Below, piece after piece: positions 3,128 through 57,300 of a DNA stretch of 64,000 nt. The DNA comes from Minisyncoccota bacterium. Lineage in GTDB: Bacteria; Patescibacteriota; Minisyncoccia; Phycocordibacterales; UBA9973. Under the pieces are notes generated by a model. That model saw nothing but the letters and a program-made list of their open reading frames with translations, searched no databases and had not been told where the DNA came from. Position 1 is the first letter of the stretch. Each line of letters starts with the position of its first letter. Position numbers and translations under genes: made by a program. The stretch covers positions 103,266 to 167,265 of the forward strand of contig JBAZSZ010000002.1 of NCBI GenBank assembly GCA_041662205.1, read 5' to 3'.

Positions 3128-4126
3128 ATGAGACTGTTTTTTATTTTTTTATTTCTTATTTTCTCTTTACTTTTTTCTTCACAGACAGCTTTTGCAGTTT
3201 CTACAACCTCAGCTTCCTCTGATTGCAGTATTACTCTTAAATTAAAAGTAGGTTCAAAGGGTATCGAAGTAGAATGTCTTCAAAGAAAAATAGGGATTGT
3301 GGCTGATGGAAGCTTTGGACCTTTGACTAAAGCTAAAATTGTAGTTTTTCAATCAAATAATGGTTTAAAGATTGACGGAATAGTCGGTCCGCTCACACGG
3401 ACGGCTCTAAATGGTATAAAAGTAGGTAATATTTACCCAGAAGGTTGTATCTCAAATGTAGGATATAGTCCAACGACTGGCAAAAAATGTGATGGTACTG
3501 TAAAAAGTGTTGTAAATAAAGGCTTTAATCCTACTTCTATTCTTACCCCTACTCTTACTCCAAAACTTACTTCCAATAATGTAAATATGGATCAATTTAT
3601 TAAAACAGTGGTAGAAGTAAGTAGAAAATCTGGTTCCAGTGAAGCAAATCTTAAAATCATAGCGGATACTCTCAGGGAAACAATTCTAAATAGTGATGTT
3701 GATTATAATAAAAAATTTGAAGAATTGTTGACCAATGAAAGTAAATTGAGCACTAATTTAAAAACTAATATTTTTGCTTCTGTGTTTGATAAAGTTCTTA
3801 CAAAGACTTTTTCCTTTTTAGGGATTAAGCCTTCTATGGCTTTTGCTGCAACTGGTATACCGTTTGGTGGAGCTTTACTCTTTCCTTTTTTTTGTGAATA
3901 TAATGCAAGCTGGATGATAACTGTTTCACCTCTTCCCCCAACTTTTGTAACCCTTCTCTCTTATTATCCGGGAACTCAAGGATTTGCGAGTTATAATATA
4001 CCTTTTACTCGTTGGTTGCTCGGTGAATATGTAACACCTGGCGTTTGTTTAATACCAGGTGACCCTGTTATTGTTATTCCCACTACAGGTACTATTACTC
4101 CAAAGGTAGGTTCTTCTCCTATTTAG
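3128..4126 (+). CDS. Secreted protein with two putative peptidoglycan-binding (PG_binding_1-like) repeats
   Basis: Signal peptide MRLFFIFLFLIFSLLFSSQTAFA, followed by two repeats of the form GSKGIEVECLQRKIGIVADGSFGPLTKAKIVVFQSNNGLKIDGIVGPLTRTAL. Confidence 0.6.
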   Translation: MRLFFIFLFLIFSLLFSSQTAFAVSTTSASSDCSITLKLKVGSKGIEVECLQRKIGIVADGSFGPLTKAKIVVFQSNNGLKIDGIVGPLTRTALNGIKVGNIYPEGCISNVGYSPTTGKKCDGTVKSVVNKGFNPTSILTPTLTPKLTSNNVNMDQFIKTVVEVSRKSGSSEANLKIIADTLRETILNSDVDYNKKFEELLTNESKLSTNLKTNIFASVFDKVLTKTFSFLGIKPSMAFAATGIPFGGALLFPFFCEYNASWMITVSPLPPTFVTLLSYYPGTQGFASYNIPFTRWLLGEYVTPGVCLIPGDPVIVIPTTGTITPKVGSSPI

Positions 4127-4961
4127 AAGCAAGAGAAATTAGTATTATCCAATCATTGAGCGATAAATCTTCTGCTCTTTTGTTTTCCAGAGATGCCAAA
4201 TCCTTGTTTTGGCAGACATTCTTTAAATTACCAGAGAGTTTTTTTCTTTTATGGGCGAAGCCTGCTTTTACTATTTCCCAAAATTTTTCTTCGTTTATTT
4301 TGTTTTTTATAAAAGTTTTCCTAGAAATATTTTTTATAGAGATAATAGCTGAATCAACTTTTGGTGCGGGAGAAAAATATCTAGCGGGTACCTTCATTAT
4401 TAATTTTGGATCTCCGTAAGCTTTGACTGAAATGGAAAGGATGCTCTCTTTTTGGTCACGAGCGATGATTCTTTTGGCTACTTCATGCTGGACCATCAGA
4501 ACCATAAGTTCTGGTTGATGCAAACCACCTAAAAATTTTTTTAGAATTGCGCCAGTGATATTGTAAGGAATGTTGGCGATTATCTTATAGCGAAGAGATC
4601 TTAAATTTTTAGAATGGTCTGGCCGGGATAGGGACCCGGAGAACCGAGGACTTGATAAAAATTTGAAAATCTCTTCGCTGATATTAAATTCTAAAATATC
4701 CTCATTTATTAAAATTAATTCCCCCCCAGCAATTTCTTTTTCAAACCTTTCTTTTAAAAATTCAAAAAGTTCTCGGTCTTTTTCTACTGCTATTACAGTT
4801 TCAGATTTTTCTAAAAGTTTTTTTGTGAGAGCTCCTTTCCCCGGCCCTATTTCTAAAATTACATCTCCCTTTTTTATTTCACCCGCTTCAATAATTTTTT
4901 TTAAAGCCAGTTCAGACTTTAAAAAATTTTGCCCTAGTGATTTTTTTGCTTTGTGTTGCAT
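4119..4961 (-). CDS. ksgA: 16S rRNA (adenine1518/1519-N6)-dimethyltransferase KsgA/RsmA, carrying an in-frame palindromic element insertion
   Basis: Motifs LGQNFL and EIGPGKGALT (SAM-binding) plus NIPYNIT. The inserted segment SSPRFSGSLSRPDHS is encoded by repeat copy A. Confidence 0.85.
   Translation of the reverse strand: MQHKAKKSLGQNFLKSELALKKIIEAGEIKKGDVILEIGPGKGALTKKLLEKSETVIAVEKDRELFEFLKERFEKEIAGGELILINEDILEFNISEEIFKFLSSPRFSGSLSRPDHSKNLRSLRYKIIANIPYNITGAILKKFLGGLHQPELMVLMVQHEVAKRIIARDQKESILSISVKAYGDPKLIMKVPARYFSPAPKVDSAIISIKNISRKTFIKNKINEEKFWEIVKAGFAHKRKKLSGNLKNVCQNKDLASLENKRAEDLSLNDWIILISLASK
4606..4660 (+). repeat. GC-rich palindromic element, copy A (core ~4614-4652) inside ksgA
   Basis: agaATGGTCTGGCCGGGATAGGGACCCGGAGAACCGAGGACttgataaaa. 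The central CCGGG-ata-ggga-CCCGG hairpin is flanked by the inverted repeats GGTCTGG/CCGAGGACC and by outer ttttnGA/TnAnAAAA arms. Confidence 0.8.
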
Positions 4962-4965
4962 ATAT

Positions 4966-7047
4966 TTATAAGTAAATTGTTTTTATTCCACTAGCCTCCC
5001 CTTCTTTTTCTAATAAATCTGCTGGAATATCAGAAATAAATTCTGATGGAGCATTGATGTTGCGTGATCCAAAAATAGTGCGGAAATTTGCAAAGGATAA
5101 AAATAATTTTCTTCGGGCGCGGGTGAGCGCTACATAGAAAAGCCTTCTTTCTTCTTCACTATCTTCTCCAGACTGTCTCTCTCCTTGTCTTTGGTGCGGG
5201 AAAAGTCCGTCTTCAAGTCCAGTAATAAAAACGTATTCAAATTCAAGGCCTTTTGAGGCATGTACTGTCATTAATTTTATGGCATTTATTGTTTCTTTTT
5301 TCTCCTGATTTATCATTAAAGAATCCTGATCTGAGGCAAGGGAGGCATCTTCTAGAAGTTTTTCTACCCCTGCTCCATTTGTTAAATTGTCATATTTAAG
5401 AGCAAGGGTGGCGAGTTCTTTAATGTTTTCTAGTCTTTCCATATCTTCTTCAGTACCATTTTGTAATTCTTGTTCTATTCCAGATTTTTTGATTACAAAT
5501 TTTATTAATTCACTTGCTTTCAAGTTCGCTATTTTTTCTTTTATTTCTTCTAGTGTTTCGTAAAATTTGCTGATTTTTAACTGCATTTTTATTGGTAAGG
5601 TTTCTTTTTGGTTGGCAAAAATTTTCATCAAAGTTACTTTGCCGATGCCTCGTGCCGGGAAATTTATTATTCTTTTTATGTCAGATAGGCTGTCAGGATT
5701 TAAAGCTGCGCGCAAATATGCGAGAGTGTCTTTAATTTCTTTTCTTTCAAAAAATTTAACCCCTAAAACTTGGTAAGGGATATTATATCGAAGCATCGCT
5801 TCTTCGAGTGCTCGTGATTGGAAATTTGCGCGATATAAAACTGCGACTTCGCTGGCGATGCTTTTGCTCAGGTTCTCGGTCCCCCGGGTCCCTATCCCGG
5901 CCAGACCATTCTCAAAAGCATCACCAGCCCCGTCTATAATTTCTAAAATTTTTGTCGCGACAAATTCGGCTTCATCAGTTTCATCCAGAGCTTCATAGAG
6001 ACTTATCTTTTCACCTTCCACATTTTTTGTAAATAAATTTTTATCTGGCCGGTATTTATTTTTTTTGATTACTTCATTTGCCGCTTCTAAAATATTTTGA
6101 GTAGATCTATAATTTTGTTCTAATAAAATTATTTTGGCATTTGGGTAATCTTTTTCAAAACTTAAAATGTTTTTCAAATTTGCTCCGCGCCAAGAGTAAA
6201 TATTTTGATCGGCATCACCAACTACACAAATATTTTTATTATTTTCAGAAAGTAGCTTAGACATCAAGTATTGCACTTCATTGGTGTCTTGATATTCATC
6301 CACATGGATATATTCCCATTTTTCTTGATAAATTTTTCTGATTTCTGCATTTTCTTTTAATAATTTTGTCGCTTTAAGGAGCAGATCATCAAAGTCTAAA
6401 GAATTCTCTTTCATTTTTTGCTTCTCATATAAATTCCAAACCTGCGCTACTATTTTTCCGAGAGGACTTGAGCCCCCCTCTTCCCTCTCCGCATAATCTG
6501 CTAAATGTACAAACTTTCCTTTTTCTCGCGAGATTATATTTTTTATTTTTTTTGGATCGTATTGTTTTGGATCTATGCCGAGTTCTTTTAAGATATTTTT
6601 AATAAGGGTAGTCGCATCTCCTTCATCTAAAATAGTGAAATATCTTGTAAGTCCTAATAATCTAGCATTTTCTTTTATTATATAAACTCCTAGAGAGTGA
6701 AAAGTGGATACGAAAGGCGCTTCACTGGGAATACTTTTTTGGATGGTCTGGCCGGGATAGGGACCCGGAGAACCGAGGACCTCCGAAAAAGCATTCCCAG
6801 TGAAGCTGTTTTTTATTGCAACATCAATTCTTTCACGCATTTCCTTGGCAGCTTTATTGGTGAATGTCACTGCCAGAATTTTATCAGGAGACACTCCATT
6901 TTTTATTAAATTTACAATTCGGTGCGTAATGGTTTTTGTTTTTCCAGCTCCAGCTCCAGCAATAATCAAAAGTGGTCCCTTCATATGAAGCGCCGCCTCT
7001 TTTTGTTCAGGATTTAGGCCTTTAAGATGTTTTTCGTCTGTATCCAC
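4966..7047 (-). CDS. uvrD: UvrD/PcrA-family ATP-dependent DNA helicase carrying two in-frame palindromic element insertions
   Basis: Walker A GAGAGKTKT, DEYQDTN, and the VLYRANFQSRALEEA helicase motifs. Two extra loop segments, SEVLGSPGPYPGQTIQ and LAGIGTRGTENLS, are encoded by repeat copies C and B. Confidence 0.85.
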   Translation of the reverse strand: MDTDEKHLKGLNPEQKEAALHMKGPLLIIAGAGAGKTKTITHRIVNLIKNGVSPDKILAVTFTNKAAKEMRERIDVAIKNSFTGNAFSEVLGSPGPYPGQTIQKSIPSEAPFVSTFHSLGVYIIKENARLLGLTRYFTILDEGDATTLIKNILKELGIDPKQYDPKKIKNIISREKGKFVHLADYAEREEGGSSPLGKIVAQVWNLYEKQKMKENSLDFDDLLLKATKLLKENAEIRKIYQEKWEYIHVDEYQDTNEVQYLMSKLLSENNKNICVVGDADQNIYSWRGANLKNILSFEKDYPNAKIILLEQNYRSTQNILEAANEVIKKNKYRPDKNLFTKNVEGEKISLYEALDETDEAEFVATKILEIIDGAGDAFENGLAGIGTRGTENLSKSIASEVAVLYRANFQSRALEEAMLRYNIPYQVLGVKFFERKEIKDTLAYLRAALNPDSLSDIKRIINFPARGIGKVTLMKIFANQKETLPIKMQLKISKFYETLEEIKEKIANLKASELIKFVIKKSGIEQELQNGTEEDMERLENIKELATLALKYDNLTNGAGVEKLLEDASLASDQDSLMINQEKKETINAIKLMTVHASKGLEFEYVFITGLEDGLFPHQRQGERQSGEDSEEERRLFYVALTRARRKLFLSFANFRTIFGSRNINAPSEFISDIPADLLEKEGEASGIKTIYL
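5862..5919 (-). repeat. Palindromic element copy B (reverse orientation) inside uvrD
   Basis: ggttctcggtcccccgggtccctatcccggccagaccat, the reverse complement of the family core with variant termini. Confidence 0.8.
6737..6792 (+). repeat. Palindromic element copy C inside uvrD
   Basis: ggATGGTCTGGCCGGGATAGGGACCCGGAGAACCGAGGACCtccgaaaaag. The 39-nt core is identical to copy A. Confidence 0.8.
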
Positions 7048-12418: not shown

Positions 12419-12490
12419 GCACTCGTAGTGAAATGGATATCACAATAGTCTTCGGAACTATTATTGAGGGTTCGAATCCCCCCGAGTGCA
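12419..12490 (+). tRNA. tRNA-Arg (anticodon UCG)
   Basis: Acceptor GCACUCG/CGAGUGC, D-stem GUGA/UCAC, anticodon stem AUAGU/ACUAU with loop CUUCGGA, T-loop UUCGAAU. A TATAAT-like -10 lies about 30 nt upstream. Confidence 0.7.
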
Positions 12491-14105
12491 CAAAACAAAA
12501 GTGGAACAGGATGTTAAAAATTTAATATCAAAAACACCCAAAGAAGTTTCACATGTAACTAATACGCTCGAAAAAGATGGTTTTGAGGCATATCTAGTTG
12601 GCGGGTGCGTTAGAGATCTTTTGATGTCTAAGGAGCCAAATGACTGGGATATCACAACTAATGCTAAACCAGAGCAAATTATAAGTCTTTTTGAAAAGAC
12701 TGTTTATGAGAATGGCTTTGGTACAGTAGCTGTGGTTGTTCCGCGTGAAACACATCAAGAGGATGTTTCACATGGAACAAACCCTATTCCCTTGTCAGAA
12801 GAGAAAAATATGATTATAGAAGTTACTCCTTATAGAATTGAAGCAAAATATAGCGATTTTAGACATCCAGATGAGGTGAAATTTAGTGATAAGCTGGAGG
12901 ACGATCTTAAAAGACGTGACTTTACGGTTAATGCCATGGCCTTAAACAGTAAAGGACATCTGGTTGATTTTTTTGATGGTATAAAGGACATTAACGAAAA
13001 GACAATAAAGGCAGTAGGGAATCCAGATGATCGTTTTGCTGAAGATGCTCTCAGGATGTTGCGCGCTGTACGTCTTTCCTGCCAGCTTAATTTTTCTGTG
13101 GCTTATGAAACGATGCAAAGTATTTTGAAAAATTCAGAGTTGATAAAAAAAATTTCTGAAGAAAGAATTCGTGATGAGTTTGTAAAAATAATTATGTCGG
13201 AAAATTCCGCGAATGGAATCGTGATGTTACAAAAATTTAATTTGTTAAAAAATATAATTCCTGAACTAGAAGAGGGAATAGGCTGTGAACAATCCGGTGA
13301 GCATATTTACGACGTTTGGAATCATTTACTTCATGCATTAGAACATGCGACAAACAAGAATTGGTCTTTGGAAATAAGGCTCGCAGCGCTTTTCCATGAT
13401 ATTGGGAAGCCCCGAAGTAGGCGTATTGCGGAGCGAATTGATAATTTATCAGGTCCTCGGTCTTTCGGGTCCCTACCCCGGCCAGACCATGACAAATCAT
13501 CAATTCGCTCCGCAAAGAAAAAATTTACTTTTTACGGTCATGAAGTTGTCAGCACGCGGATGGCAAAAAAAATAATGGAGAGATTAAAATTTCCTAAAAA
13601 AGAAATTGAGTTAGTAGAAAAACTTGTTCGCAATCATATGTTTTTTTCTGACACAGAATTAATCACGCTGTCAGCCGTGCGAAGAATTATTGCAAAAGTT
13701 GGAAAAGAAAATATTTGGTTATTGATGAATGTCCGTGAGTGCGACAGGGTAGGGATGAAGAAAAAAGAAACCCCATATCGCCTTCGGAAGTATTTTGCCA
13801 TGATTGAGGAAGCCCTGAGAGATCCTATTTCTGTCGGACAGTTGAAAATCAACGGTGAATTTATGATAAAAGAGCTTGGAATCACTCCCGGACCACGCAT
13901 GGGGTGGATTTTACATGCATTACTCGAAGAAGTGCTAGATGCTCCGGAGAAAAACACGGTAGAACATCTGTCGGAGTTGGTAAAATCTTTAAATATGTTG
14001 GGGGATACAGAACTAAAAACTCTTGGTCTACGTGGAAAAGAAAAAAAAGAAGAATTAGAAGAAGAAGAGGTTGTGAAGCTTCACAAAAAGCATGGAGTGA
14101 AATAA
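12486..14105 (+). CDS. cca: CCA-adding tRNA nucleotidyltransferase with an HD domain, carrying an in-frame palindromic element insertion
   Basis: GGCVRDLL, RRDFTVNA, and the HD motif LFHDIGKP...FYGHE with about 26 extra residues (..NLSGPRSFGSLPRPDHD..) between GKP and FYGHE, encoded by repeat copy D. The start is a GTG at 12486 (overlaps the tRNA-Arg 3' end by 5 nt) or at 12501; there is no early in-frame ATG. Confidence 0.8.
   Translation: MHKTKVEQDVKNLISKTPKEVSHVTNTLEKDGFEAYLVGGCVRDLLMSKEPNDWDITTNAKPEQIISLFEKTVYENGFGTVAVVVPRETHQEDVSHGTNPIPLSEEKNMIIEVTPYRIEAKYSDFRHPDEVKFSDKLEDDLKRRDFTVNAMALNSKGHLVDFFDGIKDINEKTIKAVGNPDDRFAEDALRMLRAVRLSCQLNFSVAYETMQSILKNSELIKKISEERIRDEFVKIIMSENSANGIVMLQKFNLLKNIIPELEEGIGCEQSGEHIYDVWNHLLHALEHATNKNWSLEIRLAALFHDIGKPRSRRIAERIDNLSGPRSFGSLPRPDHDKSSIRSAKKKFTFYGHEVVSTRMAKKIMERLKFPKKEIELVEKLVRNHMFFSDTELITLSAVRRIIAKVGKENIWLLMNVRECDRVGMKKKETPYRLRKYFAMIEEALRDPISVGQLKINGEFMIKELGITPGPRMGWILHALLEEVLDAPEKNTVEHLSELVKSLNMLGDTELKTLGLRGKEKKEELEEEEVVKLHKKHGVK
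13443..13499 (-). repeat. Palindromic element copy D (reverse orientation) inside cca
   Basis: aggtcctcggtctttcgggtccctaccccggccagaccatgac. The variant central hairpin ttcggg/ccccgg contains one G-U-type mismatch. Confidence 0.75.
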
Positions 14106-19831: not shown

Positions 19832-19838
19832 AGGAAGG

Positions 19839-19970
19839 TTTTTAAAATTCTTTCTTGGCATACTTTTTATAAAGCAATCTATCTGGCGAAGCTTCGCCAG
19901 CGAACTGCTCGGCTCGTCAGCCTGCGCAAGGCTTTCTAAAAAATACGCCTGCAACAAATTTTAAAAATCT
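19839..19970. repeat. Structured GC-rich intergenic element, family T1, copy 1 (downstream of rpsO)
   Basis: tttttataaagcAATCTATCTGGCGAAGCTTCGCCAGCGAACTGCTCGGCTCGTCAGCCTGCGCAAGgctttctaaaaaa, with outer AT-rich inverted arms. It ends at the TATAAT of the NYN gene. Confidence 0.7.
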
Positions 19971-19984
19971 GCTATAATACACAC

Positions 19985-22791: not shown

Positions 22792-22818
22792 AATTCTTTA
22801 TTTTATAAACTTTTCTTT

Positions 22819-22888
22819 GGTACGGATTTTTTGAAGCTTAAAAAATCCTGAAGTTCTCGGCTCGTCAGCCTCGAAACCCCGCGAAAAG
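22819..22888 (+). repeat. Structured intergenic element, family T2, copy 1 (downstream of pnp)
   Basis: GGTACGGATTTTTTgaagcttAAAAAATCCTGAAGTTCTCGGCTCGTCAGCCTCGAAACCCC. It shares the CTCGGCTCGTCAGCC core with T1. Confidence 0.7.
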
Positions 22889-22913
22889 TTATATAATAAA
22901 GAATTAACGCTAT

Positions 22914-24887: not shown

Positions 24888-24902
24888 GATAGGAGTATAA
24901 CA

Positions 24903-24955
24903 TTTCCCCCACCCCAGGGATAGGGGAAATCCCCTATCCCTGGGGTGGGGGAAAC
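24903..24955. repeat. Perfect 53-bp palindrome (25-bp arms, 3-nt spacer) between divergent metK and the dksA-like gene
   Basis: TTTCCCCCACCCCAGGGATAGGGGA-aat-TCCCCTATCCCTGGGGTGGGGGAAA. GC-rich in an AT-rich genome. Its GGGATAGGG centre resembles the core of the in-frame element family. Confidence 0.85.
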
Positions 24956-24968
24956 TTGCTATGAAAAT

Positions 24969-25349: not shown

Positions 25350-26966
25350 ATGAGTTTTGCCAAAGTTTATTCAGCGCAAGTTAATTTACTCAAGGGTTCT
25401 ATCGTGACTATTGAAGTAGATCTCTCAAAAGGGCTCCACTCTTTTAGCTTGGTTGGTTTGCCGGACAAAGCGGTGGATGAATCCAAAGATAGAGTAAGCG
25501 GAGCCATAAAAAATTCTGGCTTTAAATCTCCCAAAGCAAAAAATCAAAAGATAATAGTTTCGCTTTCACCGGCTGATTTGAAAAAGGAGGGCCCTTTTTT
25601 TGATTTAGGAATTGCTTTGTCTTATATGCTAGCGGCGGGTGACGTGAAATTTGATTCAGAGAAAAAGATTTTTTTAGGAGAGCTGGGGCTCGATGGAACT
25701 TTGCGGAAAATCCGTGGGGCCTTACCACTTGCGCAAGAAGCTAAAAGACTTGGTTTTGAAGAAATATATTTACCAAAAGAAAATGCAGTCGAGGCGGCGT
25801 TAGTGGAAGGCATAAAAATTTTTGGAGCAAATAGTTTGCAGGAAGTGGTGAGGCATCTAAGCCCCAATGAGGCCAGCAAAATTTTTTCGGGTCCTCGGTC
25901 TGAAGCCAGACCAGCTCAAAAATCTTCTAGCCTCATTGAGGCTGGAGGATTAATTAATATTCAGCCGCAAACAAAAATAAATTATAAAAAAGAAATATCA
26001 CGGATTGATTTTTCAGATATTCGTGGGCAAGAGGGAGCCAAGCGAGGTTTGGAAATTGCGGCAGCTGGCGGACACAATATCGCCATGTATGGCCCACCGG
26101 GCACAGGTAAGACGATGCTTGCTCGGGCATTTTCTCAACTACTACCAGATTTAGATCTTGATGAGGTTTTAGAAATTACAGGCATTCACTCAGTAGCAGG
26201 AAATACAAATGGAGAGTTAGTTTGTTTTCCTCCATTTCGTTCCCCGCATCATACTTCGTCCTATGTTTCTATTATCGGTGGAGGGACATATCCAAAGCCC
26301 GGAGAAGTGACGCTCGCACATCGCGGAGTTTTATTTTTAGATGAATTTCCAGAATTTGAAAAAAGAGTGATCGAATCTCTGCGCCAGCCACTCGAAGACA
26401 ACATTGTTTCAATTTCGCGCGCCAAAGGAAATGCTTGTTTTCCTTCAAATTTTATTTTAGTCGCGGCGATGAATCCTTGTCCTTGTGGGAACGCGACTTC
26501 GAAACAAAAAGCATGCATTTGCAAACCGTCCGACTTAGATAGATATAAAAGAAAATTGTCTGGACCGATTGTGGATCGTATCGATCTCTGGGTTTCTGTC
26601 GGTAACGTTGATTATAAAAAATTAGGAGGCGATGGGGATGGCGAGAAAAGTGAAAAGATAAAAGAAAGAATAATCAAAGCGCGAGAAAACCAAAAAAATA
26701 GATTTAAAAAATTTGAGAAAGATATTAAGAAAAAAATCACAACTAATAGTGAGATGAATGTAAAAGATCTAGGTATGATGGTGCCACTCGGTGGCAAAGT
26801 GAGAGACTTGCTCGATGATAGTGCAGAACGTTTGAGCTTGTCTGCTCGCGCCTATCATCGGATAATTAAAATAGCATGCACGATAGCAGACTTGGAAAAT
26901 TCTCCTGAGGTAGAAGAGCATCATATTTTAGAAGCGATACAATATCGACCGAAAGTTAATAACTAG
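25350..26966 (+). CDS. comM: YifB/ComM-family Mg-chelatase-like AAA+ ATPase, carrying an internally deleted copy of the palindromic element in its linker
   Basis: N-terminal Lon-like domain, Walker A GPPGTGKT, Walker B VLFLDEF, and a C-terminal Mg-chelatase region. The linker SGPRSEARPAQ is encoded by repeat copy E. Confidence 0.8.
   Translation: MSFAKVYSAQVNLLKGSIVTIEVDLSKGLHSFSLVGLPDKAVDESKDRVSGAIKNSGFKSPKAKNQKIIVSLSPADLKKEGPFFDLGIALSYMLAAGDVKFDSEKKIFLGELGLDGTLRKIRGALPLAQEAKRLGFEEIYLPKENAVEAALVEGIKIFGANSLQEVVRHLSPNEASKIFSGPRSEARPAQKSSSLIEAGGLINIQPQTKINYKKEISRIDFSDIRGQEGAKRGLEIAAAGGHNIAMYGPPGTGKTMLARAFSQLLPDLDLDEVLEITGIHSVAGNTNGELVCFPPFRSPHHTSSYVSIIGGGTYPKPGEVTLAHRGVLFLDEFPEFEKRVIESLRQPLEDNIVSISRAKGNACFPSNFILVAAMNPCPCGNATSKQKACICKPSDLDRYKRKLSGPIVDRIDLWVSVGNVDYKKLGGDGDGEKSEKIKERIIKARENQKNRFKKFEKDIKKKITTNSEMNVKDLGMMVPLGGKVRDLLDDSAERLSLSARAYHRIIKIACTIADLENSPEVEEHHILEAIQYRPKVNN
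25884..25913 (-). repeat. Internally deleted palindromic element copy E inside comM
   Basis: ttttcgGGTCCTCGGTCTgaagCCAGACCAgct. Both termini are retained and the central palindrome is replaced by gaag. Confidence 0.6.
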
Positions 26967-33322: not shown

Positions 33323-33333
33323 AAAAGAAAATA

Positions 33334-33445
33334 ACTAAAATAGGAAAATATCAAAATTTATAAAGCAATCTATCTGGTGTTGCTACACCAGCGAACTGCT
33401 CGGCCCGTCGGCCTGCGCAAGGCTTTCTAAATTTTTTATTTTCCT
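33334..33445. repeat. Family T1, copy 2 (downstream of pyrF), flanked by a perfect 18-bp inverted repeat
   Basis: aactaaaataggaaaata...ataaagcAATCTATCTGGTGTTGCTACACCAGCGAACTGCTCGGCCCGTCGGCCTGCGCAAGgctttctaaa...tattttcctattttagtt. Compensatory substitutions relative to copy 1 in both internal hairpins. Confidence 0.75.
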
Positions 33446-33631
33446 ATTTTAGTTTTCCACTTTTTCCACTTTTATCTAGGCTTGCTTCTGTGTGTAGAAA
33501 TGTTACTATCATTTTTAATGTATCAACAGAGATTAAAAGAGAAAAAGTCTGGGGAAAAGTTTGCCACTTCTATCTTTTTAAGCTCCATTATCAATATTTT
33601 ATTTTAAAACCCCTTTTGGGGTTATTTTTTT

Positions 33632-46597: not shown

Positions 46598-46605
46598 TTA
46601 GTTGC

Positions 46606-46683
46606 GCTTCTTCCAATTTTTCTTCGGCTCATCCTTCTCGGAGTACCGAGCGGGACCCTACCGAAAGAAAAATTGGAAGAAGC
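46606..46683. repeat. Compound GC-containing palindrome between pilB and pilC
   Basis: cttcttccaatttttcttCGG...CTCGGagtaCCGAG...CCGaagaaaaattggaagaag. An 18-bp outer inverted repeat encloses an inner palindrome. The right arm overlaps the possible TTG start of pilC. Confidence 0.6.
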
Positions 46684-47911
46684 TTTACAAAAAATGTTAT
46701 TTTTATACAGCGCAAAATCAAAAACAGGGGAAATTTTGGAAAGTGTCTTGGACGCCACTGATCGTTATACTCTTGCTCGAGAGTTGCGTTCTCGGGGTTA
46801 TGCTCCATTGTCGATTACAAAAAAAAATAAATATTTTAGTGATAAATTTTTAGCCCTGTCTGATATTTTTTCAAAAATAAAAGTTGCAGAGCAGATCATA
46901 TTGACTAAAAATTTAAGTGGAATGATCAAAGCAGGACTCTCCCTTTCCAGAGCATTATCGGTTTTAAAAAAGCAAACAAAAAATCCTAAACTAATTAAAA
47001 TTTTAACTTCTTTAATAAATGATATAAATTCTGGAGAAACTTTTTCTTTTGCTCTTTCAAAATTTCCAAATGTTTTTTCTAAACTTTTTACCTCGATGGC
47101 TCGTGCTGGGGAAGAATCAGGAAATCTGTCTGGAGCTCTTTCTGATATTGGATTAAATCTGGAAAAGTCTTATTCTTTGAATAAGAAAATTAAAGGCGCG
47201 CTTATTTACCCAGGAGTGATCATGTCAGCGATGGTCGTTATTGGTGTTTTGATGTTTGCTTTTGTGGTGCCAACTTTGGCAGGTACATTCAAAGAACTTG
47301 GAGTGGTATTACCTTTTTCTACTCAGGTCCTTATATTTTTTGGTAATTTTTTCTCGCATAATTTAATCCTAACTTTTCTAATAATTTTCAGTACAGCTCT
47401 CGGTATCATTTCTCTTTTTCAAGCTAAATTCATGGCGCCGTATATTGATTTTATTATTTTAAAAATTCCAGTTGTGAATAATTTAACTAAAGAATTAAAT
47501 ACTGCCCGCACGGCTCGCACTATTTCTTCGCTTTTAATTTCTGGTGTTTCTTTAACTCGAACTATTGAAATAACTGAAGATGTAGTGCAAAATATTTATT
47601 ATAAAAAAGTTTTAAATGAAGCAAAATTAGCGATAGAAAAAGGAGAGCCATTTTCAAAGGCATTCGAAGCTCATCTTGATTTATATCCTGTAATGATGTC
47701 CGAAATGATTGAGGTCGGAGAGGAAACAGGAAAACTATCTGATATGTTGCTTGAAATTGCTTTATTTTATGAAGGAGAGGTAGAAAATAAAACTAAAAAT
47801 CTTTCCACTATTATCGAGCCTTTACTCATGATTGTTATCGGATCGGGGGTTGGGTTTTTTGCTATTTCAATGATTTCCCCATTGTATTCAATTTTAGGAA
47901 GTATAAATTAA
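46673..47911 (+). CDS. pilC: Type IV pilus platform protein PilC (T2SS F-domain x2)
   Basis: Two GspF-like repeats with TM helices. The ORF-track start is a TTG at 46673; an ATG at 46694 is an alternative. Confidence 0.85.
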   Translation: MEEALQKMLFLYSAKSKTGEILESVLDATDRYTLARELRSRGYAPLSITKKNKYFSDKFLALSDIFSKIKVAEQIILTKNLSGMIKAGLSLSRALSVLKKQTKNPKLIKILTSLINDINSGETFSFALSKFPNVFSKLFTSMARAGEESGNLSGALSDIGLNLEKSYSLNKKIKGALIYPGVIMSAMVVIGVLMFAFVVPTLAGTFKELGVVLPFSTQVLIFFGNFFSHNLILTFLIIFSTALGIISLFQAKFMAPYIDFIILKIPVVNNLTKELNTARTARTISSLLISGVSLTRTIEITEDVVQNIYYKKVLNEAKLAIEKGEPFSKAFEAHLDLYPVMMSEMIEVGEETGKLSDMLLEIALFYEGEVENKTKNLSTIIEPLLMIVIGSGVGFFAISMISPLYSILGSIN

Positions 47912-52795: not shown

Positions 52796-52812
52796 AGAAA
52801 GTTTTATAAAAT

Positions 52813-52875
52813 AAAGTTTTGGAATGGTCTGGCTGGGATAGGGACCCAGAGAACCGAGGACCTGAGAAAACTTTG
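52813..52875 (+). repeat. Palindromic element copy F, intergenic (HIT gene / recJ), with compensatory stem changes
   Basis: aaagttttggaATGGTCTGGCTGGGATAGGGACCCAGAGAACCGAGGACCtgagaaaacttt. The stem CTGGG/CCCAG replaces CCGGG/CCCGG, a double compensatory change. The outer arms aaagtttt/aaaacttt extend the palindrome to about 63 bp. Confidence 0.8.
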
Positions 52876-52895
52876 ATTTTATAAAACTTTCTATA

Positions 52896-55082: not shown

Positions 55083-56591
55083 ATGCGAGATAGAATTTTT
55101 TATACAATTTGTTTTGGTTTTTTATTTGGAGTGCTGACGCGCTCTTTTATTTTGGTAGATTTATATTTGGTTATTTTGTTTAGTGTGATTGCTGGTGCAT
55201 TGTTTATATTTTTTACATTAGTCTCAAAAAGTGATTGGACCTGTCTGCGCAGGCAGGGAATTATAGTTTCTATTTTTATTTTGGCTTTTAGTTTAGGTGT
55301 TTACAGATTTAATATGGTGGATGTGCCGAATTCTCTTGTTTTTGAAAATCAAGTGGGACAAGAAGTAACTTTTTCTGGAGAAATTACAGACGAGCCTAGT
55401 ATAAAAGAGAATAACCAGCAATTGATAGTAAAAATAAAAAAAGAAAAAGATAAAACACATATTTTATTAACCACTAATTTAGATATAGATTATAAATATG
55501 GAGATGAGATAAATTTTTTTGGCGAATTAGAAAAGCCGGGAAATTTTATTACTGATCAGGGAAAAGAATTTGACTATATAAATTATTTACGGAAAGATGG
55601 GATTTTGTATGTGATGAGTTATCCAACAATTTCCATTGTTTCGCGCGGGAATGGTAACTCAATTCAAAGCATCTTATTTTCTATTAAAGATAAGTTTTTG
55701 GAGAAAATAAATTTTGCTATTAATGCCCCTGAGAATCTTCTTATGGGCGGGCTTATTTTGGGCGAAAAATCTTCTTTTAGCCAGGAGCTGAGACAGAATT
55801 TTGTGGATACTGGTACGATACACATCGTTGCTCTTTCTGGATACAATGTGACAATTGTGGCTGAATGGATTATGAAATTATTCTCTTATGTAAATTTTGG
55901 CTTGCCTGCACAGGCAGGTATTGGAATGGGAATATTAACAATAATTTTATTCATTATAATGACTGGTGGAATTTCGACCGCTATTCGGGCGGGGATAATG
56001 GCGACTTTGGCATTAGTGGCCCGCGCGACTGGGCGCAACTATGATGTCGCGCGAGCTTTATTATTGGCTGGGTTGTTTATGATAATTCTTAATCCTTTTC
56101 TTCTTGTTTTTGATGCTTCTTTTCAACTTTCTTTTTTGGCGACAGCCGCTGTGATATTTATTGCTCCTAGAATTGAAAAATATTTTCTATGGGTACCGAA
56201 AACTTTTGAGTTACGAGATATAGTATCAGTCACTTGCGCTGCTTATATTTTTGTTTTTCCTTTTATTCTTTATAAAATGGGTAATTTTTCACTCGTAGCC
56301 TTACCAGCTAATATTTTAATTTTGCCCTTTATTCCTCTTACGATGATGTTTGGGTTTGTTACTGGTTTTCTTGGACTTGTTTATTATGTATTGGCAGTGC
56401 CTGTGGGTTATCTTTCTTATTTATTTTTACATTATGAGCTCGGAGTAATAAGTTTTTTTGCTGATCTACCTTTTGCGTCTTTTACTTTTCCAGATTTTCC
56501 ACTTTTGCTAACAGTTTTAATATACATCTATTTTATTTATAAACTTTTTGGCAGAAATATAATAAGTTTTTTTAGAGAAAATCAAGAATAA
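55083..56591 (+). CDS. comEC: ComEC/Rec2-family competence channel protein (DUF4131 + Competence domain only; no MBL domain)
   Basis: Polytopic membrane protein with the Competence-domain motif GTIHIVALSGYNVTIVA. Confidence 0.7.
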   Translation: MRDRIFYTICFGFLFGVLTRSFILVDLYLVILFSVIAGALFIFFTLVSKSDWTCLRRQGIIVSIFILAFSLGVYRFNMVDVPNSLVFENQVGQEVTFSGEITDEPSIKENNQQLIVKIKKEKDKTHILLTTNLDIDYKYGDEINFFGELEKPGNFITDQGKEFDYINYLRKDGILYVMSYPTISIVSRGNGNSIQSILFSIKDKFLEKINFAINAPENLLMGGLILGEKSSFSQELRQNFVDTGTIHIVALSGYNVTIVAEWIMKLFSYVNFGLPAQAGIGMGILTIILFIIMTGGISTAIRAGIMATLALVARATGRNYDVARALLLAGLFMIILNPFLLVFDASFQLSFLATAAVIFIAPRIEKYFLWVPKTFELRDIVSVTCAAYIFVFPFILYKMGNFSLVALPANILILPFIPLTMMFGFVTGFLGLVYYVLAVPVGYLSYLFLHYELGVISFFADLPFASFTFPDFPLLLTVLIYIYFIYKLFGRNIISFFRENQE

Positions 56592-56600
56592 TGTTTTTAA

Positions 56601-56662
56601 GGGGTTTCGAGGCTGTCGAGCCGAGAATTTCAGGATTTTTCAAGCTTCGAAAAATTTGTACC
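56601..56662 (-). repeat. Family T2, copy 2 (reverse orientation) between the convergent comEC and sodA genes
   Basis: The reverse complement reads GGTACAAATTTTTCGAAGCTTGAAAAATCCTGAAATTCTCGGCTCGACAGCCTCGAAACCCC. Confidence 0.7.
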
Positions 56663-56688
56663 GGCAAAAATATTACTCTTGATTTTCT

Positions 56689-57300
56689 CTACTGAGAATT
56701 TTTGAAATTTTCCTCTACCATTTCCCAATTTAGATTTGCGAAAAAGTCTTCAACATATTGTTTTTTACCACTAGGTTGATAGTCTGTCACAAAAGCGTGT
56801 TCCCACATATCAATACCCAAAATCCAATTAAGACCATTTAATTGTCCTAAATGATGCTCATCTATCCAAGCATCTATAAATTGATTTGTTTCTTTGTCCC
56901 AATATAATACGGCCCAGCCGATCCCGCGAGTCATGGCTAGAGATTTAAACTTAGTAAGCCAAGCATCAAAAAATAATCCTTGTTTTTCTATAGCATTTTT
57001 AAATGTAGAATTTGTTGGTAGTGGCCTTGCTCCTCCTTCAAGAGATTTGAAATAATATTCATGATTACGCATGCCGTTGAATTCAAAACCAAATCTTCTA
57101 TGTAATTCTCCTATCAAATAAATAACACCCGGTGTTAATTCTCTTATTTCAGACATTTTGTCATATTCTTCAAGCTTTTCCAAAATTAGGTTTGTGTTTT
57201 TTACATAGCCAGCATAAAGCTTCAAATGTTCTTCAATATTTTTTGAAGAGATACCTTTTAAAGTTCCAATATTAAATTTTTTTTCTTCAAACTTCTTCAT
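56689..57300 (-). CDS. sodA: Fe/Mn superoxide dismutase
   Basis: LHRRFGFEFNGMRNHEYYF and GIDMWEHAFVTDYQ (D-x-W-E-H). Confidence 0.85.
   Translation of the reverse strand: MKKFEEKKFNIGTLKGISSKNIEEHLKLYAGYVKNTNLILEKLEEYDKMSEIRELTPGVIYLIGELHRRFGFEFNGMRNHEYYFKSLEGGARPLPTNSTFKNAIEKQGLFFDAWLTKFKSLAMTRGIGWAVLYWDKETNQFIDAWIDEHHLGQLNGLNWILGIDMWEHAFVTDYQPSGKKQYVEDFFANLNWEMVEENFKNSQ

Follow-up and report, generated by a model that had tools for sequence, protein, structure and literature searches.

The Rickettsia palindromic elements (RPEs) are short palindromic repeats that are present in many copies per genome, are inserted in-frame in genes for functional proteins, are translated there as an extra loop peptide and have no transposase of their own (Ogata et al., 2000, in PMC3733652). 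REPs are small stem-loops with G·T pairs in their stems, some of them nested in larger palindromes (PMC3733652), and the intragenic REPs of the GTAG/CGTC superfamilies occur at times within ORFs, notably those of DNA-repair genes like uvrA, B and D (Di Nocera et al., 2013, PMC3733652). Long near-perfect inverted repeats are also found inside translated genes of Nematomorpha mitochondria, where they are not dispersed, have no common core and code with both arms for conserved protein regions (PMC6649704). MITEs and REPINs are non-autonomous, hairpin-forming, dispersed and structured into subfamilies. Integron attC sites are defined by the structure of the folded single strand rather than by sequence, with conserved paired boxes and extrahelical bases; the variable terminal structure at their apex ranges from very short to long, and the site remains an attC site all the same. 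The hairpin elements described here have RPEs and intragenic REPs, including REPs nested in palindromes, as their closest known kinds, and full-text literature searches turned up no description of comparable elements from CPR bacteria/Patescibacteria.

In the window, i.e., the whole 64-kb stretch of DNA that was analyzed, which comes from a MAG of the Paceibacteria/Nomurabacteria, a 538-aa ORF (25350–26966, plus strand) is comM/yifB, homologues of its product being annotated as "YifB family Mg chelatase-like AAA ATPase"; an exact look-up of the window ComM protein matched no record. Pfam places ChlI at residues 21–145, Mg_chelatase (AAA+) at 220–424 and Mg_chelatase_C at 431–533. The plus strand of this ORF reads GGTCCTCGGTCT-GAAG-CCAGACC at 25890–25912, and the reading frame across it gives SGPRSEARPAQ. 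This sequence and its translation had been reported in the first-pass annotation, as had the position of the peptide in the linker ahead of the AAA+ domain, and both are confirmed: the element codes for residues ~172–199, between the ChlI and Mg_chelatase domains, and therefore lies in the ComM linker. The flanking motifs, which the same annotation took for terminal inverted repeats, form an internal conserved helix, and the element continues beyond it for ~27 nt on each side. The whole element, as delimited by the match of a covariance model (CM) and by its fold, is 78 nt long (25863–25940) and has its top strand on the minus strand, antisense to comM. Its arm on the 5' side of the gene (25863–25889, coding for PNEASKIFS) pairs with that on the 3' side (25914–25940, coding for AQKSSSLIEA), and between them lies a 24-nt core on the minus strand (25890–25913), TGGTCTGG-CTTC-AGACCGAGGACC, in which both conserved half-sites are present.

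The comM site belongs to one repeat family with the full hairpins of the window, as the first-pass annotation had proposed. A covariance model built solely from 22 full copies at unrelated loci matches it over model positions 1–90 with a score of 39.7 bits (E 1.3e-7). The half-sites agree exactly with those of the family in order and spacing, with one A of the unpaired AGAA absent, and the copy has both the T-rich/A-rich inner arms and the long complementary outer arms of the family. The apical stem-loop between the half-sites is absent, 4 nt (CTTC) standing in its place, which makes this copy a short variant. The top strand folds into a hairpin with near-perfect pairing (MFE −40.6 kcal/mol, z = −6.4), and the core has GGTCTG-GCTT-CAGACC as an alternative fold.

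Six copies of the family are found in the window, five full copies with CM scores of 73–97 bits and the short copy at comM, and a CM search of the window returned no member beyond these. Five of the six lie within ORFs. The full copies are in-frame in ksgA/rsmA (4589–4679, plus strand, 79.7 bits, peptide SSPRFSGSLSRPDH; gene at 4119–4961, PF00398 being present in an orthologue), at two sites of uvrD/pcrA (gene at 4966–7047), namely site 2 (5845–5934, minus strand, 73.3 bits, peptide ENGLAGIGTRGTENLSK) and site 1 (6718–6807, plus strand, 96.5 bits, peptide EVLGSPGPYPGQTIQKS), and in the gene for the CCA-adding enzyme (13426–13515, minus strand, 90.6 bits, peptide SGPRSFGSLPRPDH; gene at 12486–14105). 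The fifth (52799–52889, plus strand, 82.8 bits) is intergenic, between divergent genes whose names, HIT-family and recJ, come from a reading of the ORF translations only. Every window copy is flanked by an inverted repeat of 20–27 nt, the sequence of which differs between copies while each pair of arms is complementary, and the fold z-scores of the top strands range from −5.8 to −7.5. The central palindrome CCGGGATAGGGACCCGG, correctly described at the outset as missing from the comM copy, occurs five times elsewhere in the window (with up to 2 mismatches; 0.01 expected), and the pattern GGTCTGG-N(0–30)-CCGAGGACC has four matches in the window (0.00 expected from shuffles), one of which is the comM site. 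Among the window genes, the core DNA is read as SSPRFSGSLSRPDH, SGPRSFGSLPRPDH, GLAGIGTRGTEN and LGSPGPYPGQT, in three different reading frames when both strands are counted, and direct translation of the core leaves five of the six frames open. A gathering search of the whole window against Rfam 15 returned four tRNAs only, and an E-value search (E up to 5) with three copies returned nothing on the elements.

A wider sample, drawn from one metagenome scan and from genome loci of ~20 kb each, gave 144 copies with complementary arms, many of which are mutual orthologues, so that the counts below are not counts of independent events. The element is a structure-defined palindromic repeat family of Paceibacteria/Nomurabacteria, which forms a long hairpin in four layers. 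The outer arms are specific to each copy or subfamily and are followed by T-rich/A-rich inner arms; then comes an invariant bulged helix of 21 nt, TGGTCTGG with CC-GA-GGACC, which includes a fixed T·G wobble and the unpaired AGAA; and at the top is an apical stem-loop that is free in sequence and length so long as pairing holds. Among the 22 unrelated copies, the middle helix (GGTCTGG with CC..GGACC) has seven invariant pairs, U·G included, 23 of 26 arm pairs are changed on both sides, and the apical stem pair 36/50 alternates between C-G and U-A. Apical stems are diverse across the family (CCGGG/CCCGG, CTGGG/CCCAG, CCTCG/CGAGG and others). For 131 well-armed copies, cores of 35–40 nt were counted in 123, of 46 nt in 4, of 26 nt in 3 and of 24 nt in 4; all four 24-nt cores are at comM, and the short type is found only there among the 144 arm-bearing copies. 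A loose pattern of the termini on viral contigs gave 120 matches, all of them high in GC and without arms, and these were set aside as chance; the pattern used for the metagenome scan was a more specific one.

Inside ORFs of at least 120 aa lie 102 of the 144 copies, with four of the six frames in use, and the coding strand is the bottom strand of the element in 80 of these genic copies and the top strand in 22. The copies are thus mostly intragenic and in-frame, occupy surface loops and linkers and, judging from the intact frames, are probably translated as filler peptide. One junction peptide across an element, read from intact frames, is IFSGPRSEARPAQK. The two strands are not equivalent: arm mismatches counted on the top strand are G·T in 91 cases vs. 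A·C in 31, an excess that is absent from the small sense-oriented subset (6 vs. 8), and the top strand is the more stable one in 131 of 144 copies.

The likeness to RPEs, which extends to the features listed at the start, is one of description, and the phyla differ (Alphaproteobacteria vs. Patescibacteria). While RPE families are defined by sequence conserved along the element, here the invariant part is the 21-nt bulged helix only, and the arms and apex vary with compensation. We know of no description for RPEs of orientation flips or of unit replacement within resident arms, both of which are documented below. The attC sites are alike in the way in which our elements seem to be recognized, with structure-defined boxes and a variable apex, a resemblance for which we claim no membership: the attC boxes R''/R' (RYYYAAC / GTTRRRY) and the L box consensus are absent from our consensus, and the window copies are located inside housekeeping coding sequence rather than beside cassettes or an integrase. 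In contrast to MITEs and REPINs, the conserved part is central and not terminal; the outermost arms differ among copies and no target-site duplication of fixed length was found, and no cognate IS or RAYT was seen in the 64-kb window and the ~20-kb loci, although arms can travel here too. REPs are mainly extragenic (PMC3733652), whereas the majority of the copies here are intragenic; moreover, the flanking palindromes of our elements differ from copy to copy, and the REP tag GTAG/CGTC is absent from the stem end of the core consensus, with ATAG or GTAG only inside the apical loop. The Nematomorpha palindromes likewise combine complementary arms with coding, but their arms code for conserved protein regions (PMC6649704), whereas the arms of our elements are in variable loops.

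Comparison of close relatives reveals how the layers are exchanged. The outer arms at uvrD site 2 are shared by the window and its closest relative, L081 (94% identity in ComM), but a 59-nt unit is inverted between the two; the inverted unit is 100% identical to the unit at uvrD site 1 of the window. Comparison of close relatives thus demonstrates that a central unit can be replaced and inverted while the resident arms stay. In ksgA of close relatives, the cores are identical, ~37% of left-arm positions differ (our own count) and the right arm co-changes, which preserves the pairing, while in the CCA enzyme the arms are kept and the core is altered with compensation. L002 and L257 represent one and the same intergenic locus, yet the centre is short in one and full in the other, and the two are oppositely oriented. 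A hairpin-less subfamily with a 26-nt core and the centre GGRTTTTTW is dispersed at L002:21121, L024 and L256 and also at uvrD sites 1 and 2, where it codes for EVLGKNPQT and NGLGIFSEDL. The expectation that hairpin-less copies with the termini alone would recur elsewhere is therefore borne out, and the comM match is not a chance one, but the particular short type of comM is confined to comM. As judged from these comparisons, the apex is the most exchangeable module of the family and its loss is no marker of death, which does not support the proposal of the first-pass annotation that elements decay by loss of the central hairpin.

Of 120 ComM homologues, 27 have the element at this position of the linker (one scored as a remnant), 69 are without any recognized linker insert and 23 have hairpin-like inserts of other kinds. 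In the element peptide, the ends, SGPR...(T/A)QK, are constant and the centres are variable, being SEARP, SGARP, FGARP or KGVSQT in the short form and SSGAPHPGQT and its relatives in the stem-loop form. The short core CGG-TYT-GGR-GCC-AGA-CCA is common to the window, L001, L323 (P0002), L324 (P0009) and L061/L235 (P0104), so that the same short allele is present at the same, orthologous comM site in at least five other assemblies, in which the nucleotide identity of the gene is 75–89%. The short alleles occur in three divergent comM backgrounds. In the metagenome scan, the pattern of which allowed centres of 2–20 nt at any locus, the sole genuine short match was that at comM (L235); three other short matches have no arms and G+C-rich flanks and look like chance. 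Of the five short-allele sequences, four retain all 17 terminal bases and the fifth retains 16, and in a hand-assembled alignment of nine comM-site copies compensatory change is found at 12 of 34 pairs. Given that the termini are conserved and that the arms carry compensatory changes, the comM short copy is most likely an old, stable and recombining allele that is still maintained, and not a decaying copy. The age of the allele, its intact termini and its co-varying arms thus do not support the earlier reading of it as a step in an order of decay.

Recombination at this site is visible. Element-bearing alleles are scattered over the comM tree, in which, for example, the element-free P0003 is the sister of P0001 and P0002. 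Downstream of the linker, L325 is 98.1% identical to L327 and 93.6% to L326, compared with 87.6 and 88.6%, respectively, upstream of it; therefore the comM linker is a junction of allele exchange.

The full element adds 66–75 nt relative to element-free orthologues, i.e., 22–23 aa at both uvrD sites, 24 aa in the CCA enzyme and 23–25 aa in comM. In the CCA enzyme, the native sequence of which at the element-free site is RSRR[IL]AExxxKKKYT, and at uvrD site 2, both arms are inside the extra 69–72 nt, which contradicts the notion that one arm is native and the other an inverted copy of the flank. The one-native-arm model fits the comM alleles that have the left arm only, and partly fits uvrD site 1. 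These left-arm-only alleles number eight by one count; by another, seven are without core and right arm, six of which have left-arm-like residues only, while the seventh, that of P0057, also retains SGPH, the beginning of the core. Their junctions are varied, so that they resemble products of deletion rather than empty sites. Two copies in L228, located 455 nt apart, have related arms and unrelated flanks, and one subfamily shares arms of ~22 nt at several loci, both of which indicate that arms are able to travel with the element. In a test for target-site duplication, 25 of 105 copies had abutting direct repeats of at least 2 nt, vs. 8 of 105 in a shifted control, and no fixed length emerged. 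Small GIY-YIG ORFs near the L082 hairpins were considered as mobilizers and dropped, as they have no counterpart in the window, and no other mobilizing protein was identified in the loci at hand.

Whether the stem-loop was lost or gained at comM is a matter of parsimony. A neighbour-joining tree of ComM gave no polarity because the element alleles are scattered by recombination. Deletion is favoured by the near-universal presence of the stem-loop in the family, by the retention in the short allele of the C after TGGTCTGG and of the AGA before CCGAGGACC, which bracket the stem-loop of full copies, and by the comM stem-loop alleles L030, L002 and L325, which have the same arms as the short allele, and in the case of L030 also its frame. 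The short state is thus most likely, being most parsimonious, a derived internal deletion. The details are less simple than the first-pass annotation, which inferred an internal deletion with the reading frame kept, had implied. Compared with L002, the window allele lacks 15 nt (5 codons) and reads CCAGACC in a different frame; by hand alignment, the difference is made up of a loss of about 13 nt between GGCC repeats, a further −3 and a +1, and the frame is changed locally. Downstream of CCAGACC the reading frame of L030 is that of the short allele. No single deletion turns any sampled full allele into the short one, and on these alleles the short form is not a clean one-step deletion. Hence the derived state proposed by the annotation stands by parsimony, and a single clean deletion does not.

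Since a conversion of the central unit could in principle turn short into full, the short form might also be ancestral at comM, with the full comM alleles having gained their stem-loop later by conversion from other genomic copies. Such replacement inside resident arms was seen directly, the short alleles are found in three divergent backgrounds and the centres of the full comM alleles are heterogeneous (L002/L325, L030, L071, L017), all of which speak for it. We nevertheless regard it as unlikely: more than 95% of family copies carry the stem-loop, the short type is confined to comM, where it keeps the bracketing C and AGA, and the family stem-loop would have to predate the comM copy or be independent of it. 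That comM was instead hit independently by the dispersed hairpin-less GGRTTTTTW subfamily, with no deletion in situ, is very improbable, even though this 26-nt-core subfamily is present at unrelated loci, the two uvrD sites among them. The comM centre, NYCC-AGR, is unrelated to GGRTTTTTW, and the short and full comM alleles have the same arms and, in the case of L030, a common downstream frame.

The remaining alternatives concern the nature of the hairpin. Two covarying helices around invariant bulges, with a wobble of the G·U type, are the signature of a structured nucleic acid, and the excess of G·T over A·C mismatches on one strand is likewise compatible with a functional RNA structure in transcripts, acting in processing, pausing or protein binding, of which comM would have a tetraloop variant. 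The strand that folds well is, however, antisense to the mRNA in 80 of the 102 genic copies, both orientations occur at one site in close relatives, no Rfam family matches and the open reading frames are kept, for which an excised RNA would have no need; we therefore give a role as RNA little credence, slightly less than an ancestral short form. A core of only 24 nt might also be put down to chance, or to a conserved peptide of the ComM linker (SGPR...) that has nothing to do with any repeat, but this is barely credible in view of the zero matches expected in shuffles, the CM E-value of about 1e-7, the long inverted repeat that flanks the comM core, the fact that ksgA, uvrD and the CCA enzyme gene read the same DNA in frames other than that of comM, and the 69 of 120 ComM homologues without a recognized linker insert.

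Taken as a whole, the explanation that we consider reasonably probable is that the comM copy is a family member long resident in the linker, that its apex was lost in one allele lineage and that this allele then spread. According to this explanation, the element would have been inserted long ago between ChlI and the AAA+ domain, and one allele lineage would have lost the apical stem-loop with 4 nt left (net −15 nt relative to L002), probably because the G/C-rich repeats in the stem allowed slippage or because the hairpin was processed there, after which a second small indel would have restored the frame. The short allele would subsequently have been inherited and moved among related genomes by homologous recombination. 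The hairpin may matter as single-stranded DNA of the top strand, with the bulged helix as the recognition site of a putative trans-acting protein; arm-to-arm template switching or gene conversion may maintain the complementarity of the arms, and copy-to-copy conversion may homogenize the cores. Given that all invariant positions are kept except one A of the AGAA bulge, the short form would remain a competent member of the family.

The comM copy by itself is a minor allelic variant, of value mainly because it opens a way into the family: the bulged helix and the complementarity of the arms are seen to be kept for long, as opposed to the dispensable apex. We propose, tentatively and at less than even odds, that the family belongs to a previously undescribed class of structure-defined mobile DNA hairpins in CPR, in which the bulged helix is the sole fixed module and is read on one strand, the apex and arms are exchangeable and resident hairpins are the homing sites of new units in either orientation. 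If so, these elements and several sister families would make particular loops of comM, uvrD, the CCA enzyme and ksgA hot spots of recombination and allele swapping, and the short allele at comM would be evidence that an element can persist without its apex. The in-frame hairpin repeats constitute a dense and apparently unreported layer in essential genes of Paceibacteria, one in which copies evolve in concert, orientation flips and the element marks a junction of recombination. They bear on the tolerance and turnover of selfish DNA in the ultra-small genomes of CPR bacteria, on the diversification of CPR protein loops and on the reading of MAG gene calls and protein alignments in these lineages.

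The same protein loops are insertion hot spots in the orthologues of UvrD helicase (P0121-P0240) and of the CCA-adding enzyme (P0241-P0360), nearly all of which carry some insert there; in uvrD, the equivalent sites of the window lie at 5845-5934 and 6718-6807. The inserts of these orthologues fall into no fewer than six further families of recurrent peptides, at times with two or three in tandem, and include peptides such as LERTLGRSDGDGQRKFSAENFRGESEN, GVSQADEPRGSA..DSDP, SNGDVAEQDI, GSLS..ALPLGSSACE and KNSSALLHPSGGTFRQQN. In the ksgA orthologue of the relative L082 (12081-12962), the ksgA insertion site is occupied by a different mini-hairpin, TCTCCCCCTTGGCAGGGGGAGA, which is translated as ISPLAGGE, in place of the family element.

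In the close relatives L325, L326 and L327, identity across the comM linker is mosaic, at 98.1% on one side vs. 87.6% on the other, a pattern indicative of homologous recombination with its junction at the comM hairpin. L326 and L325 differ in comM by a 63-nt indel, through which L326 lacks the core and right arm. In the comM linker of the relative L323, the short element, i.e., the allele without the apical stem-loop, is followed directly after its right arm by an 18-nt stretch that contains a repeated GAAACTGGA (GAA ACT GGA CTT GAA ACT GGA; peptide ETGLETG).

The window also contains other hairpin families. A second family with variable arms and a conserved centre (...TATAAAGCAATCTATCTGG-hairpin-CCAGCGAACTGCTCGGC.CGTC.GCCTGCGCAAGGCTTTCTAAA) is found at 19834-19972 and 33331-33456, while a third, with arms specific to each copy and the centre GGTACGGATTTTTTGAAGCTTAAAAAATCCTGAAGTTCTCGGCTCGTCAGCCTCGAAACCCC, is found at 22792-22905 and, as the reverse complement, at 56573-56691. 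Given its 24.6 bits with the family covariance model, the hairpin at 46600-46689, which has 22-nt arms and the centre CTCATCCTTCTCGGAGTACCGAGCGGGACCCTAC, may be a member of a related family. Between metK and a dksA-like ORF that lies upstream of comM, a palindrome with 28-bp arms at 24900-24957 (ccccagggatagggga AA tcccctatccctgggg; complementary in 26 of the 28 arm pairs) scored 31.6 bits with this model, and its arms are similar to the apical loop of the family, GGGATAGGGA.

Within uvrD and apart from the hairpins, a sub-threshold match to Rfam RF03531 ("C. difficile sRNA included into helicase gene") at 5087-5184 (-) was weak (29 bits vs. the gathering score of 65.2; E = 0.068) and is probably due to chance. 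Two stand-alone GIY-YIG ORFs of 84 aa each were identified in L082 (7240-7494 and 21265-21519), the first of which is followed by ccccaca/tgtgggg-type repeats; neither has a homologue in the window. Among the UvrD homologues, P0231 (1073 aa) contains the intein-type domain PF14890 within the UvrD orthologue. Thus, the UvrD helicase of some relatives is also host to a protein-level mobile element.
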